Positions 5,733 to 63,726 of a DNA stretch of 64,000 bases are shown here, piece by piece. This stretch comes from Eledone cirrhosa (taxonomy: Eukaryota): assembly GCA_964016885.1 (NCBI GenBank), contig OZ024748.1, forward strand, positions 6,262,001 to 6,326,000, in the 5' to 3' direction. The notes under the pieces are model-generated. The model did no database searches and was not told the DNA's origin. It worked only from the letters and a program-made list of their open reading frames with translations. The translations under genes were made by a program, and so were the position numbers. How positions within the stretch are numbered: the stretch's first letter is position 1; each line of letters begins with the position of its first letter.

Positions 5733-6887
5733 TACTAACATTTGTGTGAGAAACTGCATATTTTGAAGGACTTTGTCGTCTGTTAGTGTTTATGGTAACA
5801 CAATAGTTACCATGTCTACAAAATTAAATGGTCCTCTTTACAAGGTCGCTAAAGACAACAACAAAAATATAATAATAACGAAGTACTAATGAGGTAAACA
5901 GTGAAATGGTTGCTCAGGGTGGCTAGAAATAGCAGCCAAATATCTTTCAGATAACACAGCAGCATGTATAATGAGGGGCTGAACACATCACATGATATAG
6001 TCTTAGATATACCTCCTTCAATAAAGAAGAGTAATGTGTCATGGTTGGACCTTCTTTAGTTTTGCTGTTTAGGAATGTGAAAGAATAAAAAGATGAGATG
6101 GTAAAAGATAGAGAAGGAGAGAAGTGGAGAATGAAAGGGAATAAAGACGGAACCAAGAAAGATAGAAGAAAAAAGCGAAGAAAGAATGAAAAGGGAAAGA
6201 ATGAAAAAAGAGAGAAGTAAAGAAGTAAAAGAAAATAAGAAATAAAATGAGAAATGTTATAAAAAGGCGGGAGAAAAGGAATAAGAGAGAAAGAGAATGA
6301 AAAGAAAGAAGGGATGATAAAAGCAAAAAGAAAGAAAAATAACGAAGCAGAATATACATAAAAAGACAAAAAAAAAAAAAACGATGTAAAATGAAAACAA
6401 AAAGTCAAAAGAATGAACTAACAAAATAAAAGCAACAACAAAAAATATAAAAACATAGAAAAAAAAAGAAAGAAAAGAAAGATTAATAGAAGAAAGAAAA
6501 TAGATGAAAAGAAATACGAATGGAATCTGAATGATTTTTGCGTGTTTAACTATCCATGTCTTAGAAAATATCTTCGACTTGTAAACAATAAAACACATAT
6601 TAATTAGTTGTAAATATAACTATTAATAGTTTCAAGGCTATCATATAAAGTTTTGTTTATTGCGCTCTCAGTCTTCCGTACATTCCTACCAATCTTTATA
6701 GCTTACAGTCTTGCCTGCTTTTGTTGCTGAAAATTATTTTTTAAATTTTCTTTGTGGTTTCTTTAATTTCTTTAACTCTTTATTTCTCTCTCCGCCACCC
6801 TCTTTCACTATACACACACACACACACACACACACACTCTCTCTCTCTCTCTCTTTTTATCTCTCTCTTTCATTCGATATATCATAA

Positions 6888-6945
6888 AGAGACGGGACCC
6901 CGACGGCTGAGCTCTTGCCGTTTCCACAGATAGTTCCAGACTCAA
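6888..6945 (-). mobile_element. Divergent fragment of HHR fold-back family A
   Basis: Reverse complement reads GAAAC GGC AAGAGCTCA GCC GTC GGGGTC, the stem III/cleavage site/stem I portion of the family A HHR. Confidence 0.6.
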
Positions 6946-7014
6946 TATATATTTACATACACACACATCCATACACCCCCCCCCCCCCCCACACACACAT
7001 ATATATATATACAT

Positions 7015-14624: not shown

Positions 14625-14910
14625 TGAAAAGAAGTTGAACTTCAAATAACACGAATTAAAATTGAAGAAGCTCTGTGTCACAGCATCATCATCGTGATCA
14701 ACATTATCATCAACATCATCATCATCACCATAAGAACACCATCTCCACCACCACCACCACCACCACGCTGCAGTAATAGCACTACCACGACGACCACCGT
14801 CACCTCAGCCAAAGACATCAGCACCACCAATCCTACTACAATCACCAGCGCCACCACAACTGGCATCACCAGTCTCCAATACGATCACCACCGCCACAGT
14901 CAGCGGCTCC

Positions 14911-17900
14911 ACCACCACTACCACCACCAGCCACACCACATCCACCACCATCCTCCAATACCACCACCACTACCACCACTGCCACCACCAGCCACACCAC
15001 ATCCACCACCATCCTCCAATACCACCACCACTACCACCACTACCACCACCAGCCACACCACATCCACCACCATCCTCCAATACCATCACCACTACCGCCA
15101 CTACCACCACCAGCCACACCACATCCACCACCATCCTCCAATACCACCACCACTACCACCACTACCACCACCAGCCACACCACATCCACCACCATCCTCC
15201 AATACCAGCACCAACAACACCACTACCACCACCAGCCACACCACATCCACCACCATCCTCCAATACCACCACCACTACCACCACTACCACCACCAGCCAC
15301 ACCACATCCACCACCATCCTCCAATACCACCACCACTACCACCACTACCACCACCAGCCACACCACATCCACCACCATCCTCCAATACCACCACCACTAC
15401 CGCCACTACCACCACCAGCCACACCACATCCACCACCATCCTCCAATACCACCACCACTACCACCACTACCACCACCAGCCACACCACATCCACCACCAT
15501 CCTCCAATACCACCACCACTACCACCACTACCACCACCAGCCACACCACATCCACCACCATCCTCCAATACCACCACCACTACCACCACTACCACCACCA
15601 GCCACACCACATCCACCACCATCCTCCAATACCATCACCACTACCACCACTACCACCACCAGCAACACCACATCCACCACCATCCTCCAATACCACCACC
15701 ACTACCACCACTACCACCACCAGCCACACCACATCCACCACCATCCTCCAATACCACCACCACTACCACCACTACCACCACCAGCCACACCACATCCACC
15801 ACCATCCTCCAATACCATCACCACTACCACCACCAGCAACACCACATCCACCACCATCCTCCAATACCACCACCACTACCACCACTACCACCACCAGCCA
15901 CACCACATCCACCACCATCCTCCAATACCATCACCACTACCGCCACTACCACCACCAGCCACACCACATCCACCACCATCCTCCAATACCACCACCACTA
16001 CCACCACTACCACCACCAGCCACACCACATCCACCACCATCCTCCAATACCAGCACCAACAACACCACTACCACCACCAGCCACACCACATCCACCACCA
16101 TCCTCCAATACCACCACCACTACCACCACTACCACCACCAGCCACACCACATCAACCACCATCCTCCAATACCACCACCACTACCACCACTACCACCACC
16201 AGCCACACCACATCCACCACCATCCTCCAATACCAGCACCAACAACACCACTACCACCACCAGCCACACCACATCCACCACCATCCTCCAATACCACCAC
16301 CACTACCACCACTACCACCACCAGCCACACCACATCCACCACCATCCTCCAATACCACCACCACTACCACCACTACCACCACCAGCCACACCACATCCAC
16401 CACCATCCTCCAATACCACCACCACTACCACCACTACCACCACCAGCCACACCACATCCACCACCATCCTCCAATACCACCACCACTACCACCACTACCA
16501 CCACCAGCCACACCACATCCACCACCATCCTCCAATACCATCACCACTACCACCACTACCACCACCAGCAACACCACATCCACCACCATCCTCCAATACC
16601 ACCACCACTACCACCACTACCACCACCAGCAACACCACATCCACCACCATCCTCCAATACCACCACCACTACCACCACTACCACCACCAGCAACACCACA
16701 TCCACCACCATCCTCCAATACCACCACCACTACCGCCACTACCACCAGCAGCCACACCACATCCACCACCATCCTCCAATACCACCACCAACAACACCAC
16801 TACCACCACCAGCCACACCACATCCACCACCATCCTCCAATACCACCACCACTACCACCACTACCACCACCAGCCACACCACATCCACCACCATCCTCCA
16901 ATACCACCACCAACAACACCACTACCACCACCAGCCACACCACATCCACCACCATCCTCCAATACCACCACCACCACCACCACTACCACCACCAGCCACA
17001 CCACATCCACCACCATCCTCCAATACCACCACCAACAACACCACTACCACCACCAGCCACACCACATCCACCACCGTCCTCCAATACCACCACCACTACC
17101 ACCACTACCACCACCAGCCACACCACATCCACCACCATCCTCCAATACCACCACCACTACCGCCACTACCACCACCAGCCACACCACATCCACCACCATC
17201 CTCCAATACCACCACCACTACCACCACTACCACCACCAGCCACACCACATCCACCACCATCCTCCAATACCACCACCACTACCACCACTACCACCACCAG
17301 CAACACCACATCCACCACCATCCTCCAATACCACCACCACTACCACCACTACCACCACCAGCCACACCACATCCACCACCATCCTCCAATACCACCACCA
17401 CTACCACCACTACCACCACCAGCCACACCACATCCACCACCATCCTCCAATACCACCACCACTACCACCACTACCACCACCAGCCACACCACATCCACCA
17501 CCATCCTCCAATACCACCACCACTACCACCACTACCACCACCAGCCACACCACATCCACCACCATCCTCCAATACCACCACCACTACCGCCACTACCACC
17601 ACCAGCCACACCACATCCACCACCATCCTCCAATACCACCACCACTACCACCACTACCACCACCAGCCACACCACATCCACCACCATCCTCCAATACCAC
17701 CACCACTACCACCACTACCACCACCAGCCACACCACATCCACCACCATCCTCCAATACCACCACCACTACCACCACTACCACCACCAGCAACACCACATC
17801 CACCACCATCCTCCAATACCACCACCACTACCACTACTACCACCACCAGCAACACCACATCCACCACCATCCTCCAATACCACCACCACTACCACCACCA
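14911..17900. repeat. Minisatellite with a 61-bp (CCA)-rich unit, about 49 copies
   Basis: Unit ccaataccaccaccactaccaccactaccaccaccagccacaccacatccaccaccatcct; the ORF track cycles through three frames every 183 bp. Confidence 0.95.
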
Positions 17901-24370: not shown

Positions 24371-24450
<80 letters not shown>

Positions 24451-24452
<2 letters not shown>

Positions 24453-24727
24453 CGACGGGGGTGTGGTAAGGAACCAGATGGACCATAACGCACCAGTGTA
24501 GTCAATACTTAGGGTAGAAGAGTGGGTAATAGGAAAATGTTTGAACCCGACGGCAGGACTCAAGCCGTTTCGACGGCTATTTCTGGACTAAATTAGAATT
24601 TTTAGCGTGGTAAATACATAACCCTATTTCTTTACCTATTTATTTACCACGCTAAAAAATCTAATTTAGTCCAGAAATAGCCGCCGAAATGGCTTGAACT
24701 CTGCCGTAGATGTCAAACATTTTCCTA
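24451..24727 (-). mobile_element. HHR fold-back family A copy
   Basis: 87-bp inverted arms 24530-24616 and 24641-24727 plus family A 3' tail; TA on both sides. Confidence 0.85.
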
Positions 24728-28597: not shown

Positions 28598-28632
<35 letters not shown>

Positions 28633-28636
<4 letters not shown>

Positions 28637-28833
28637 AACGAGTAGGACCCCGACGGCTGAGCTGAAGCCGTTTTGACGGCTAATTCTGGACTAAGAACAG
28701 AATTAGCCGTCGAAACGGCTTGAGCTCAGCCGTCGGGGTCCTACTCGTTCCTATTACCCACTCTACTACCCTAAGTATTGAGTACTTTGGTGCGTTATGG
28801 TCCATCTGGTTCCTTACCACATTTCCTTCGTTA
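28633..28833 (+). mobile_element. HHR fold-back family A copy
   Basis: Short inverted arm taggaacgagtaggacccc..., long arm ending ...catttccttcgtta; TA flanks. Confidence 0.9.
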
Positions 28834-28845
28834 TATATATATAAG

Positions 28846-29029
28846 GGCGGTGGATTGGCAGTATCGGTAGAGGGTCGGACGCCAAGCTTTCCAGCATAGT
28901 TACGTCCCTTTACGATCTAAGTTCAAATCCCGCCGAGGTTGCCTTGGCCTTTCATCCTTACGGGGTCGATAAAATAAGTACCAGTAATGCACTGGGTATT
29001 TGCTGGCCTTGTGCCTAAAGTAGAAACAG

Positions 29030-29213: not shown

Positions 29214-29534
29214 TATATATGCATGAAATAAATATACATATATATATAAATACATAAATATATATATGTAAAGAAAGAAATATATATATATATATGATAG
29301 TAGGTTATTATTAGGGAAAAAGATTATTAGCAAACGTCTTTTTTCCACTTAGTGGAAACGGCCGGAGCTCACCCGTAGGGGTTCTCACTCTTTTTCTATA
29401 TATATATACATAGTCATACTCAACTATCCCAAGTATCGTGTAGTCTTTTAAATAGTTGTCTAACCAGTTTGATACTGGTTTAAACCTGATATATATTTAT
29501 ATATATGTCCGTATATATATATATATATGTGTAC

Positions 29535-41607: not shown

Positions 41608-41666
41608 CCCAGAAATAACCGTCGAAATGGTTTGAGCTCTGCCGTCGAGGTCTTGAACATTTTCCT
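41608..41666 (+). mobile_element. Solo short arm of family A
   Basis: ccagaaataaccgtcgaaatggtttgagctctgccgtcgaggtc...ttttccTA then (TA)n. Confidence 0.75.
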
Positions 41667-45078: not shown

Positions 45079-45093
45079 TAAATATATATATAT

Positions 45094-45275
45094 AACAAAG
45101 GAAATGTGGTAAGGAACCAGATGGACCATAACGCACCAGAGTACTCAATACTTAGGGTAGTAGAGTGGGTAATAGGAAAAAGTATGACCCCGACGACAGA
45201 GCTCAAGCCGTTTCGACGGCTATTTCTGGACTCGAAACTGCTTGAGCTCTGCCGTCGGGGTCATACTTTTTCCTA
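45094..45275 (-). mobile_element. HHR fold-back family A copy
   Basis: Long arm on -, short arm on + ending tttttccTA; TA flanks. Confidence 0.9.
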
Positions 45276-45430
45276 TATATATATATATATATATATGGAC
45301 AAGAGAGCAGGCAATAACAATATGAAAAGAAATTTGAGAAAAGTAAGCATATCTTTGACAAAATATATGTATAAAACACGAAGAATATATGTACAGTTGA
45401 TATATTTACACCGAACGGAAAGAGAAGAAT

Positions 45431-46984: not shown

Positions 46985-47029
<45 letters not shown>

Positions 47030-47031
<2 letters not shown>

Positions 47032-47222
47032 GGAAAAAGTATGACCTCGACGGCAGAGCTCAAGCCGTTTCGACGGCTATTTCAGTCCAGAATAGCCGTC
47101 GAAACGGCTCGAGCTCTGCCGTCGGGGTCATACTTTTTCCTATTTCCCATTCTACTACCCTAAGTATTGAGTACTCTGGTGTGTTATGGTCCATCTGGTT
47201 CCTTACCACAATTCCTTTGTTA
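47030..47222 (+). mobile_element. HHR fold-back family A copy
   Basis: Short inverted arm and long arm to ...ttcctttgtta; TA flanks. Confidence 0.9.
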
Positions 47223-47237
47223 TATATATATATATAC

Positions 47238-51041: not shown

Positions 51042-51087
<46 letters not shown>

Positions 51088-51090
<3 letters not shown>

Positions 51091-51364
51091 ATTAGAATAC
51101 TGGAGCGTGTTGGAGTCAAACACCCTCTTCGTATTATAGAAATGACAGTAAAAAGTTATAGCTCAATGCAGTTAAACAGAGCCAAAAAATTAAGAGAGTA
51201 AAACAAAGAATCCTTTAATACATCAAAAGTTTTTATTAGCCGACAATGTTTCGTCCTATTAATTGCCCTATTTTGATTGCCCTGATGAGTCCTTAATAGG
51301 ACGAAACATTGTCGGCTAATAAAAACTTTTGATGTATTAAAGGATTCTTTGTTTTACTCTCTTA

Positions 51365-51366
<2 letters not shown>
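51088..51366 (-). mobile_element. TA-flanked fold-back insert containing a canonical hammerhead
   Basis: Perfect 74-bp arms 51189-51262 and 51293-51366; the long arm extends to (TA)n at 51088. Confidence 0.85.
51276..51320 (+). ncRNA. Complete canonical type I hammerhead ribozyme
   Basis: AUUGCC CUGAUGA GUCCU UAAU AGGAC GAAAC AUU GUC/GGC(U)AAU; predicted cleavage after 51313. Confidence 0.9.
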
Positions 51367-51396
<30 letters not shown>

Positions 51397-51440
51397 GTAG
51401 GTATGTATGTATTCATGTATGTATGTATGTATATATATAG

Positions 51441-51597
51441 AGAAAAATAGTCAGGACCCCGGCGGCTGAGCTCCGGCCGGATCCACCTATCGAAACGGCC
51501 GGAGCTCAGTCGTCGGTGTCCTGACTCTTTTTCTATTACCCACTCTACTACCCTAAGTATCGAGTACTTTGGTGCGTTATGGTCCATCTACTTTCTT

Positions 51598-51600: not shown

Positions 51601-51639
<39 letters not shown>

Positions 51640-51643
<4 letters not shown>

Positions 51644-51846
51644 AACAAGTATGACCCCAACGGCAGAGCTCAAGCTGTTTCGACGGGTAATTTTTTTTTT
51701 TTTTATTTTAGTTCAGAATTAGCCGTCGAAACGGCTTGAGCTCTGCCGTCAGGGTCGTACTTGTTCCTATTACCCACTCTACTACCGTAAGCATTGAGTA
51801 TTTGGTGCGTTATGGTCCATCTGGTTCCTTACCACATTTCCTTCGT

Positions 51847-51848
<2 letters not shown>
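51640..51848 (+). mobile_element. HHR fold-back family A copy
   Basis: Inverted arms with a poly(T) spacer and a full 3' tail; TA flanks. Confidence 0.9.
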
Positions 51849-51924
<76 letters not shown>

Positions 51925-53520: not shown

Positions 53521-53584
53521 CATGGATTGTACTGCCATTGGTGAATGCGATGGTGAGATCGTGCTGTTAATGTTGCTAGTATTG

Positions 53585-56200
53585 GTAGTGGTGTTCCTGT
53601 TGTAGGTGGTAGTAGTGGTGTTGGTAGTGGTGGTGGTAGTAGTGGTGTTCCTGTTGTAGGTGGTAGTAGTGGTGTTGGTAGTGGTGGTGGTAGTAGTGGT
53701 GTTCCTGTTGTAGGTGGTAGTAGTGGTGTTGGTAGTGGTGGTGGTAGTAGTGGTGTTCCTGTTGTAGGTGGTAGTAGTGGTGTTGGTAGTGGTGGTGGTA
53801 GTAGTGGTGTTCCTGTTGTAGGTGGTAGTAGTGGTGTTGGTAGTGGTGGTGGTAGTAGTGGTGTTCCTGTTGTAGGTGGTAGTAGTGGTGTTGGTAGTGG
53901 TGGTGGTAGTAGTGGTGTTCCTGTTGTAGGTGGTAGTAGTGGTGTTGGTAGTGGTGGTGGTAGTAGTGGTGTTCCTGTTGTAGGTGGTAGTAGTGGTGTT
54001 GGTAGTGGTGGTGGTAGTAGTGGTGTTCCTGTTGTAGGTGGTAGTAGTGGTGGTGGTAGTGGTGGTGGTAGTAGTGGTGTTCCTGTTGTAGGTGGTAGTA
54101 GTGGTGTTGGTAGTGGTGGTGGTAGTAGTGGTGTTCCTGTTGTAGGTGGTAGTAGTGGTGGTGGTAGTGGTGGTGGTAGTAGTGGTGTTCCTGTTGTAGG
54201 TGGTAGTAGTGGTGTTGGTAGTGGTGGTGGTAGTAGTGGTGTTCCTGTTGTAGGTGGTAGTAGTGGTGTTGGTAGTGGTGGTGGTAGTAGTGGTGTTCCT
54301 GTTGTAGGTGGTAGTAGTGGTGGTGGTAGTGGTGGTGGTAGTAGTGGTGTTCCTGTTGTAGGTGGTAGTAGTGGTGTTGGTAGTGGTGGTGGTAGTAGTG
54401 GTGTTCCTGTTGTAGGTGGTAGTAGTGGTGTTGGTAGTGGTGGTGGTAGTAGTGGTGTTCCTGTTGTAGGTGGTAGTAGTGGTGTTGGTAGTGGTGGTGG
54501 TAGTAGTGGTGTTCCTGTTGTAGGTGGTAGTAGTGGTGGTGGTAGTGGTGGTGGTAGTAGTGGTGTTCCTGTTGTAGGTGGTAGTAGTGGTGGTGGTAGT
54601 GGTGGTGGTAGTAGTGGTGTTCCTGTTGTAGGTGGTAGTAGTGGTGTTGGTAGTGGTGGTGGTAGTAGTGGTGTTCCTGTTGTAGGTGGTAGTAGTGGTG
54701 GTGGTAGTGGTGGTGGTAGTAGTGGTGTTCCTGTTGTAGGTGGTAGTAGTGGTGGTGGTAGTGGTGGTGGTAGTAGTGGTGTTCCTGTTGTAGGTGGTAG
54801 TAGTGGTGTTGGTAGTGGTGGTGGTAGTAGTGGTGTTCCTGTTGTAGGTGGTAGTAGTGGTGTTGGTAGTGGTGGTGGTAGTAGTGGTGTTCCTGTTGTA
54901 GGTGGTAGTAGTGGTGTTGGTAGTGGTGGTGGTAGTAGTGGTGTTCCTGTTGTAGGTGGTAGTAGTGGTGTTGGTAGTGGTGGTGGTAGTAGTGGTGTTC
55001 CTGTTGTAGGCGATAGTAGTGGGGTTGGTAGTTGTAGTGGTAGTAGTGGTGTTCCTGTTGTAGGTGGTAGTAGTGGTGTTGGTAGTTGTGGTGGTAGTAG
55101 TGGTGTTCCTGTTGTAGGTGGTAGTAGTGGTGTTGGTAGTGGTGGTGGTAGTAGTGGTGTTCCTGTTGTAGGCGATAGTAGTGGGGTTGGTAGTTGTAGT
55201 GGTAGTAGTGGTGTTCCTGTTGTAGGTGGTAGTAGTGGTGTTGGTAGTGGTGGTGGTAGTAGTGGTGTTCCTGTTGTAGGTGGTAGTAGTGGTGTTGGTA
55301 GTGGTGGTGGTAGTAGTGGTGTTCCTGTTGTAGGTGGTAGTAGTGGTGTTGGTAGTGGTGGTGGTAGTAGTGGTGTTCCTGTTGTAGGTGGTAGTAGTGG
55401 TGTTGGTAGTGGTGGTGGTAGTAGTGGTGTTCCTGTTGTAGGCGATAGTAGTGGGGTTGGTAGTTGTAGTGGTAGTAGTGGTGTTCCTGTTGTAGGTGGT
55501 AGTAGTGGTGTTGGTAGTTGTGGTGGTAGTAGTGGTGTTCCTGTTGTAGGTGGTAGTAGTGGTGTTGGTAGTGGTGGTGGTAGTAGTGGTGTTCCTGTTG
55601 TAGGCGATAGTAGTGGGGTTGGTAGTTGTAGTGGTAGTAGTGGTGTTCCTGTTGTAGGTGGTAGTAGTGGTGTTGGTAGTTGTGGTGGTAGTAGTGGTGT
55701 TCCTGTTGTAGGTGGTAGTAGTGGTGTTGGTAGTTGTGGTGGTAGTAGTGGTGTTGGTAGTGGTGGTGTTAGTAGTGGTGTTCCTGTTGTAGGTGGTAGT
55801 AGTGGTGTTGGTAGTTGTGGTGGTAGTAGTGGTGTTGGTAGTCGTGGTGGTAGTAGTGGTGTTGGTAGTGGTGGTGGTAGTAGTGGTGTTGGTAGTGGTG
55901 GTGGTAGTAGTGGTGCTCCTGTTGTAGGTAGTAGTAATGGTGTTGGTAATGGTGGTGGTAGTAGTGATGTTGGTAGTGGTGGTGGTAGTAGTGGTGTTGG
56001 TAGTGGTGGTGGTAGTAGTGGTGTTGGTAGTGGGGGTGTTAGTAGTGGTGTTCCTGTTGTAGGTGGTAGTAGTGGTGTTGGTAGTTGTGGTGGTAGTAGT
56101 GGTGTTGGTAGTGGTGGTGTTAGTAGTGGTGTTCCTGTTGTAGGTGGTAGTAGTGGTGTTGGTAGTTGTGGTGGTAGTAGTGGTGTTCCTGTTGTAGGTA
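53585..56200. repeat. 54-bp (GGT/AGT)-rich minisatellite, about 48 units, with higher-order structure
   Basis: Unit ggtgttcctgttgtaggtggtagtagtggtgttggtagtggtggtggtagtagt; register holds over 540-bp steps. Confidence 0.95.
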
Positions 56201-58487: not shown

Positions 58488-58597
58488 TAGAGTCGGGACC
58501 CCTACGGCTGAGCTTTTGCCGTTTCAACAAAATCTTTCCAAGTCTCGACTACTCTGTGGACTAATTCTCTAACCAGTTTCACACTGAATCCATCGTG

Positions 58598-59593: not shown

Positions 59594-59618
59594 TTATATA
59601 TATATATATATATATAAA

Positions 59619-59810
59619 TAACGAAGGAGTTGTGGTAAGGAAACAGATGAACCATAACGCACCAGAGTACTCAATACTTAGGGTAGTAGAGTGGGTAATA
59701 GGAAAAAGTATGACCCCGACGGCAGAGCTCAAGCCGTTTCGACGGCTATTTCTGGACAGAAATAGCCGTCGAAACGGCTTGAGCTCTACCGTCAGGGTCA
59801 TACTTTTTCC

Positions 59811-59812
<2 letters not shown>
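59619..59812 (-). mobile_element. HHR fold-back family A copy
   Basis: Near-perfect palindrome ...ctatttctg ga cagaaatag...; short arm ends tttttccTA. Confidence 0.9.
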
Positions 59813-59869
<57 letters not shown>

Positions 59870-62851: not shown

Positions 62852-63035
62852 TAATTGTTTCTAAGTTTGGCACAAGGCCACCAAATACCCAGTGCATTAC
62901 TGGTACTTTATTTTATCGACCCCGTAAGGATAAAAGGCAAAGTTAACCTCGGCGGGATTTGAACTCAGAATGGCAAGGGCCGTAACTCTATACGTCAAAG
63001 CATGGCGTCCGACTCTCTACCTATACTGCCAATCC
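62852..63035 (-). mobile_element. Full-length SINE S1
   Basis: Reverse complement of the S1 consensus. Confidence 0.85.
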
Positions 63036-63086
63036 AACATAATAATGAAATTCGTGATGAGCGTGCTATATATTTCACAGTGTCTA

Positions 63087-63213
63087 TATATATATAAACA
63101 CAAATATATATGTAAACACAAATATATATGTAAACACAAATATATATGTAAACACAAATATATATGTAAACACAAATATATATGTAAACACAAATATATA
63201 TGTAAACACAAAT
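63087..63213. repeat. 18-bp tandem (TATATATGTAAACACAAA), 7 copies
   Basis: taaacacaaa at 63095, 63113, 63131, 63149, 63167, 63185 and 63203. Confidence 0.95.
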
Positions 63214-63473
63214 AATTATTTGTGTTTACAACAAATTTTAAACAATCCTCTTGACAACTACAATCTTCCCATATAAGGAAGTACCCCCTTGAAAAGTTCG
63301 GCTATTTAATCACCAGGCTAAAAATTCTAATTTAGTCCAGAAATAGCCGTCGAAACGGCTTGAGCTCTGCCGTCGGGGTCATCCTTTTTCTTATTTCCCA
63401 CTCTACTACCCTATGTATTGAGTACTCCGGTGCGTTATGGTCCATCTGGTTCCTTACCACACTTCTTTAGTTA
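63201..63473 (+). mobile_element. Family A copy extending furthest 5', retaining the whole hammerhead fold (63283-63379)
   Basis: CCCC UUGAAAA G UU CGGCUAUUU (33-nt loop) AAAUAGCCG U C GAAAC GGC UUGAGCUCU GCC GUC/GGGG; 30-bp perfect palindrome at the 5' end; standard family A 3' tail. Confidence 0.85.
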
Positions 63474-63726
63474 TATATATATTTATATATGAAGGACGGC
63501 GGTTGTATGTGTATATATGTGTGTGTTTCCTCATGTGGGTGTGTGTATGTTTGCGCCTGTATGTATGTGTGTATATCTGAAGGACATTGGTTGTATGTGT
63601 ATATGTGTGTGTTTGTTTGTATGGATGTATGTATGTGTGTATGTACCTGTATGTATGTATGTGTGCATGTCGTTATGCATGTGTACATGTGTGTATTTGC
63701 GTGAGTATATGTGTTTGCACGTGTGC

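Follow-up and report, generated by a model that had tools for sequence, protein, structure and literature searches.

In hammerhead ribozymes, G12 and the 2'-OH of residue 8 serve acid-base catalysis. Residue 8 also forms a tertiary Watson-Crick pair with residue 3, and the C3-G8 pair of the active fold, which a preliminary description of the locus reported here took as established, is indeed described in PMC3884650. Natural core covariants carrying U3-A8 instead were presented by Perreault et al. 2011, who state that such ribozymes had already proved active in vitro (PMC3088659), and Cervera and De la Pena 2014 found about 1,300 U3-A8 motifs from the Cercyon element of Schistosoma mansoni (PMC4209133), the supplement of that study including a core that begins UUGAAAA. 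The novelty that the preliminary description implied for a U3-A8 core thus belongs to these earlier studies. In the parts of the supplement cited here, the animal minimal class has the consensus CUGANGAH, with two listed entries that lack the extra base following position 9, and the accompanying text describes related Penelope hammerheads as slow in vitro and the Serpula hammerhead as cleaving as a monomer (PMC4209133). The hammerhead of an anole element is reported to require the element's protein and to be dispensable for insertion in vitro (PMC11167929). Penelope-like elements are described as leaving inverted, truncated copies with a tail at one end and a bias toward (TA)n (PMC8557442), the tail arising from two start sites of the reverse transcriptase (PMC11167929).

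The locus studied here lies in a window of 64,000 nucleotides of the Eledone cirrhosa genome (contig OZ024748.1, positions 6,262,001 to 6,326,000), which is AT-rich and dense in microsatellites. A type I hammerhead motif spans positions 63285-63378 of its plus strand, within an insertion of a repeat that we refer to as family A (63216-63465, plus strand, the start being approximate), which is 5'-truncated and ends at (TA)n. All parts of the motif are on the plus strand. The 5' strand of stem I consists of CCCC at 63285-63288, forming the four proximal base pairs, preceded by an extra C at 63284 and a distal segment at 63279-63283. It leads into the 5' catalytic core U3 U4 G5 A6 N7 A8 A9 at 63289-63295, which reads UUGAAAA in this copy, with N7 (63293) being A, C or G among copies. 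Stem II occupies 63296-63351 and is closed by G10.1-C11.1 (G63296-C63351); a 2x1 U-rich internal loop comes next (U63297 and U63298 opposite U63350), and then nine further pairs (63299-63307 with 63341-63349). The 33 bases enclosed by this nine-pair part (63308-63340) hold, beyond an internal loop, a distal 7-bp hairpin (63316-63322 with 63331-63337). The 3' core G12 A13 A14 A15.1 reads GAAA (63352-63355) and continues into a stem III of five base pairs (63355-63359 with 63369-63373), whose 9-base loop, UUGAGCUCU, contains the palindrome GAGCUC at 63362-63367. The GUC triplet at 63372-63374 places the predicted cleavage 3' of C17 (63374 by hammerhead numbering), and the 3' strand of stem I follows as GGGG at 63375-63378 with a distal segment reaching 63386. 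The stems, core, GAAA and GUC named in the preliminary description were all located, although it had overlooked the U-rich internal loop, the hairpin inside the 33-base loop and the fifth C of stem I.

Folding and a descriptor search both returned three helices around the core with helix I open, which is the type I arrangement, and U4 G5 A6 N7, A9, G12 A13 A14, the A15.1-U16.1 pair and H17 are all in place. Positions 3 and 8 are Watson-Crick compatible as U-A at the level of sequence. With the strict descriptor this motif is the sole site in the window, and 200 block-shuffled windows gave no match; its folding z-score is -3.18, with none of 200 shuffles equally stable. The G, A, A and A of the 3' core are invariant in all 11 aligned arms of the family, while two-sided covariation was seen at none of six stem III pairs among these closely related arms of the window, a value that 500 of 500 shuffles equalled or exceeded; for stems I and II the window offers a single full copy. 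Inspection by eye of type II and type III arrangements and of the minus strand revealed no second core. The Rfam hammerhead models produced no match at E <= 10 within the 281 bases of 63200-63480, where only two chance matches were returned. As had been predicted, then, neither a CUGANGA-based search nor Rfam picks up the motif at 63285-63378, which confirms the 2014 work in that such descriptors and models miss whole high-copy ribozyme families.

The U3-A8 core had been proposed as a natural variant rather than the decay of a single copy, and public sequence data bear this out. Four of 23 listed public runs were aligned to 63232-63471 at 80% likeness, with differences tabulated from 8%; 40 of the 58 differences across the runs are listed. 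Run X21 comprises raw RAD reads from a different sample and study, under the same species label as X1, and samples few loci (89 distinct starts at 63309). X1 consists of whole-genome contigs of the best-matching run and may derive from the window's own sample, X5 of contigs from a different study and organism label, and X6, also under a different organism label, covers only the 3' part and not the 5' half of the hammerhead. At position 3 (63289), 77 of 570 X21 reads show C, as does 2.8% of the contig depth of X1; a deletion of this base is seen in 23 of 635 X21 reads. At position 7 (63293), the 523 X21 reads include 194 with C and 108 with G, the corresponding shares of X1 depth being 45% and 5.8%. 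The stem I run is one C shorter in 80 of 564 X21 reads. No difference falls at 63290-63292 or 63294-63307 among those listed, and within 63283-63307 N7 is, on the same basis, the only site with three states.

The state of position 8 (63294) can be bounded from the A>G differences. X1 has a single A>G place at or above 8%, at 63240, and X5 has three, at 63240, 63293 and 63330; as all of these are accounted for, G8 must lie below 8% in both. In X21 no G at position 8 appears among the differences listed, which include four of the run's five A>G places; its unlisted differences also include one G>A and one T>G, and a small minority of X21 reads may carry G8 or a canonical core. Contig 10 of X5 spans 63243-63379 without a gap and with two differing letters (63293 and 63309), and it carries U3-A8. 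Over 240 places the copy in the window shows seven departures from the majority, all outside the core. UUGANAA is thus the majority state of the close subfamily under two organism labels, CUGANGA is not the consensus, and U3-A8 is not decay. This majority state holds for relatives at least 80% alike; in 1049 X21 reads the match gives way to unlike sequence before position 63344, and the cores of more distant subfamilies may differ. Since a position free to vary in hammerheads shows three states here and its neighbors are nearly fixed, the pattern at N7 suggests that selection has acted in the master copies. Such variation provides evidence at the population level for selection on a motif whose cleavage proved dispensable in vitro in the anole element (PMC11167929).

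The window copy itself is probably a neutral relic. The 5' strand of its stem I presents five C's to four G's, which permits a one-base slip, and the slipped stem is the predicted minimum-energy fold, accounting for 65%, 49% and 64% of the ensemble in three fragments as against 1%, 17% and 2% for the active register. In the secondary-structure ensemble the nine stem II pairs have probabilities of 0.76-1.0, and the G10.1-C11.1 pair is weak (0.09). These energies leave out the tertiary core of the hammerhead, so the predicted slip lowers activity but does not exclude it. A private C at 63383 in distal stem I, where 9648 of 9982 X21 reads have A, bears on the same helix: the majority A would, when paired by hand, allow 63279-63283 to pair with 63382-63386 and so favor the active register. 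The stem III hairpin has a predicted energy of -6.5 kcal/mol alone and -26.9 kcal/mol as a homodimer.

Set beside the described systems, the family A motif is best classed as a type I hammerhead, probably of the Penelope-associated kind, in which the core variant is a known one and two features of the animal minimal class are lacking. The extra base between 9 and 10.1 is absent, A63295 adjoining G63296, and in place of an absent or tiny helix III there is a stem of five base pairs; the palindromic loop III, G10.1-C11.1 and the long helix II of that class are all present. The exchange at positions 3 and 8 is the one of the Perreault et al. 2011 covariants, but it is rare in the account given there (PMC3088659) and is the majority state of a high-copy subfamily here. 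The Cercyon hammerheads are among the closest known: as described in the cited parts of PMC4209133, they share the type I arrangement, U3-A8 as a trait of a multi-copy family, G10.1-C11.1, a long helix II, a short proximal helix I, a palindromic loop III region and a preponderance of single truncated copies. In contrast, the Cercyon and other animal entries in the part of the supplement compared have almost no stem III, where family A has five base pairs and a 9-base loop, and the internal loop after a single stem II pair and the second hairpin also set family A apart from Cercyon. The link to an open reading frame is established for Cercyon, whereas family A is placed from repeat structure. 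Fungal and protist Penelope-like hammerheads, the monomer-cleaving Serpula example among them, resemble the motif: they are of type I, their helix III is large and stable, and loops I and II make no recognizable contact (PMC4209133, parts cited). Their elements, however, are telomere-associated and lack an endonuclease, whereas family A is dispersed in (TA)n and has a palindromic loop III. With a stable stem III of its own, this natural U3-A8 hammerhead could lend itself to assay as a monomer, which most animal Penelope-type motifs do not. Our literature search, which had subscription journals and repeat libraries outside its scope, found no description of the family A repeat, and PMC8557442 was the only work it found on Penelope and hammerheads in octopus or other cephalopods.

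The insertion pattern of family A is distinctive. The repeat occupies eight loci in the window (24443-24727, 28632-28840, 41609-41652, 45086-45276, 47029-47229, 51639-51855, 59608-59813 and approximately 63216-63465), and only the last of these retains the 5' core, as the preliminary description had recognized; the copy at 24443-24727 extends no further 5' than about 63300 in coordinates of this reference copy. All eight loci have TA repeats or TA-rich sequence at their ends, six consist of head-to-head pairs of 5'-truncated arms, and none in the window is arranged head to tail. The arms have two alternative 3' ends. Short arms stop at 63393-63394, and long arms continue for about 70 bases to (TA)n, the long-arm extension resembling a tail (63395-63465, plus strand). 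Both ends recur in the reads, where TA-rich loose ends follow 63394 in 1663 X21 reads and 63465 in 6864.

Reads from other copies cover the insertion and continue upstream of 63232, but the depth of the 5' half relative to the 3' half is only 4.4% in X21, 2.7% in X1 and 5.3% in X5. Most copies form a unit of some 130 bases whose 5' limit falls abruptly at 63327-63341, where depth climbs about twenty-fold. Truncation and inversion of 5' ends cluster in this interval, within loop II and the distal hairpin, and most arms in the window begin there. Opposite-strand joints in reads are located at 63334-63338, and among the 15 of 29 joints that are listed, 14 join opposite strands. At the hammerhead-bearing insertion, the 5' junction (63086-63230) consists of an 18-base unit repeated 7.2 times (63086-63214) and a 30-base palindrome (63201-63230). 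The palindrome combines TA repeats with the truncated 5' end of the element, and in the 18-base unit TA repeats are joined to that end in inverted form; the array could have arisen by repeated template jumping at insertion or by later minisatellite growth. Upstream of the insertion, 62878-63040 is presumably a dispersed SINE-like repeat, and a stretch similar to it translates at 28923-28990. Diverged relatives of family A occur at 51436-51597, 29344-29402, 6886-6946 and 58489-58528; in all of them GAAAC, stem III, the GAGCUC palindrome and the stem I 3' strand are preserved, whereas the flanks of loop III and stem II differ and a 5' core is retained in none. Further relatives of the 3' part are present in X6.

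The (TA)n flanks, head-to-head truncated arms and two 3' ends led us to read family A as a Penelope-like pseudo-LTR, a pattern in agreement with the descriptions in the cited parts of PMC8557442 and PMC11167929, although the tail is about 70 bases in family A and 30-40 in those described for Penelope-like elements. Membership is likely, and it rests on structure rather than on a gene. All window copies of the family are truncated and the search for open reading frames was confined to the window: no reverse transcriptase or GIY-YIG frame stood out among its 158 frames of at least 90 amino acids, which are mostly simple repeats, Pfam returned no family for five candidate frames, and six-frame translation of the 63216-63465 copy gave no element protein. 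Relatives were found at no locus in viral contigs, metagenome contigs or prokaryote genomes. Our main reading, to which we assign a probability of roughly 75%, is that the motif is a type I hammerhead whose U3-A8 core predominates in an abundant repeat subfamily, likely the self-cleaving ribozyme of a Penelope-like pseudo-LTR, preserved in a 5'-truncated insertion in (TA)n.

The transcript of the master element would fold into the hammerhead motif, with U3-A8 substituting for C3-G8 as the tertiary Watson-Crick pair and G12 and the 2'-OH of residue 8 performing acid-base catalysis. Cleavage would then take place 3' of C63374; it would probably be slow and aided by the element's protein or by dimerization through loop III. 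The five base pairs of stem III mean that a monomeric ribozyme should be possible, and the palindromic loop III makes a dimer possible. Anatomy, majority state, free variation at N7 and insertion pattern were established directly; cleavage, its role and the link to an element encoding a reverse transcriptase are what we infer.

Several other accounts of the same observations were weighed. The motif might descend from a hammerhead that was already inactive in the masters, with U3-A8 fixed by descent and cleavage unneeded for transposition, which we consider unlikely. Hammerhead mutants of the anole element Poseidon still insert in vitro (PMC11167929, part cited), the 5' half is kept in just 2.7-5.3% of depth, stem I slips, and variable sites are scarce throughout a young family, which makes constancy of the core weak evidence by itself. 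Against inactivity, the sole three-state site in 63283-63307 falls exactly at N7, and both partners of the 3-8 pair depart from the canonical bases yet keep their ability to pair. The 2x1 loop after the first stem II pair, which also favors an inactive master, has a counterpart in axolotl HHR_Amex2, where a U-U mismatch is known at the position of the family A U-rich loop, the base of helix II, and is tolerated with low activity (PMC7229834, part cited). A copy-specific origin, with the window copy as the one mutant in a CUGANGA family or its 5' half as a chance product of head-to-head inversion, is extremely improbable. Both core changes are transitions, the copy does differ from the majority at seven places, and stems I and II have 5' strands that show the complementarity to the 3' half expected of an inverted arm; however, none of the seven private differences lies in the core, and reads from another sample and a contig under another organism label share the 5' half with U3 and A8. 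We therefore rejected decay in a lone mutant, U3-A8 being the majority in reads and contigs, and likewise a decayed inverted arm as the source of the 5' half, independent reads carrying the same sequence.

A further alternative replaces the protein-coding parent and its pseudo-LTR with a non-autonomous retrozyme or SINE-like element, whose hammerhead would excise and circularize RNA of unit length. Animal non-LTR retrozymes, as described in the cited parts of PMC7229834 and bioRxiv 10.64898/2026.07.22.740005, likewise carry a type I hammerhead in a short repeat; the latter derives animal retrozymes from Penelope-like pseudo-LTRs. The failure of the window search to find an open reading frame, the sharply bounded unit of about 130 bases to which most copies belong and a stable stem III, which in the predicted fold would permit monomer cleavage, are all in keeping with such an element. 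Retrozymes are nevertheless described as head-to-tail arrays of units with whole hammerheads, an arrangement seen at none of the eight family A loci in the window. The common short unit is without half of the ribozyme, the joints listed are opposite-strand in all but one of 15 cases, and the family continues upstream of 63232. We consider a retrozyme very unlikely, and the Penelope-like pseudo-LTR with a self-cleaving hammerhead remains our preferred reading.

Elements of these accounts can also be joined. In such a combination, the Penelope-like hammerhead would be competent as a monomer, U3-A8 would have arisen through a one-base shift of the core register plus one change at position 3, with the intermediate persisting, and loop II would be the point at which the reverse transcriptase stops and folds back. 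This route, which contrasts with two paired transitions, draws on the near equality in X21 of C at position 3 (77 substitutions and 23 deletions, 100 in all) and G at 63293 (108). C3 and G7 also appear to share one X5 contig of depth 2.07, and the two observations hint at a sister form one base off the usual Penelope core, in an alignment that yields no haplotypes. We hold the combined account to be speculative and distinctly unlikely as a whole. Its fold-back component, if true, would account for the loss of half of the ribozyme from about 95% of copies. Our literature search, directed at the core variant and at Penelope hammerheads, found no description of truncation in loop II.

The window holds a second hammerhead at an unrelated head-to-head repeat, family B, which has a single locus in the window (51085-51370). 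Its motif, at 51276-51320 on the plus strand, is a canonical CUGAUGA minimal type I hammerhead that scores 31.7 bits (E 6e-4) against Rfam RF00163, under the gathering score of 34. Applied to the whole window, Rfam gave 235 matches, of which the 150 listed are mostly microRNA models on simple repeats and include a single hammerhead match, at 51276. The inverted arm of family B starts in loop II of its ribozyme, and this pair together with the clustering of truncations in loop II of family A may reflect fold-back of the reverse transcriptase at the ribozyme. Elsewhere in the window, broken frames at 217-962 resemble what we take to be the C-terminal part of a LINE-type protein, Pfam assigning no family to two frames from this interval. 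Two long, strongly skewed tandem arrays, at about 14800-17900 and 53560-55770, contain stop-free, low-complexity frames of more than 1000 codons and are probably minisatellites.
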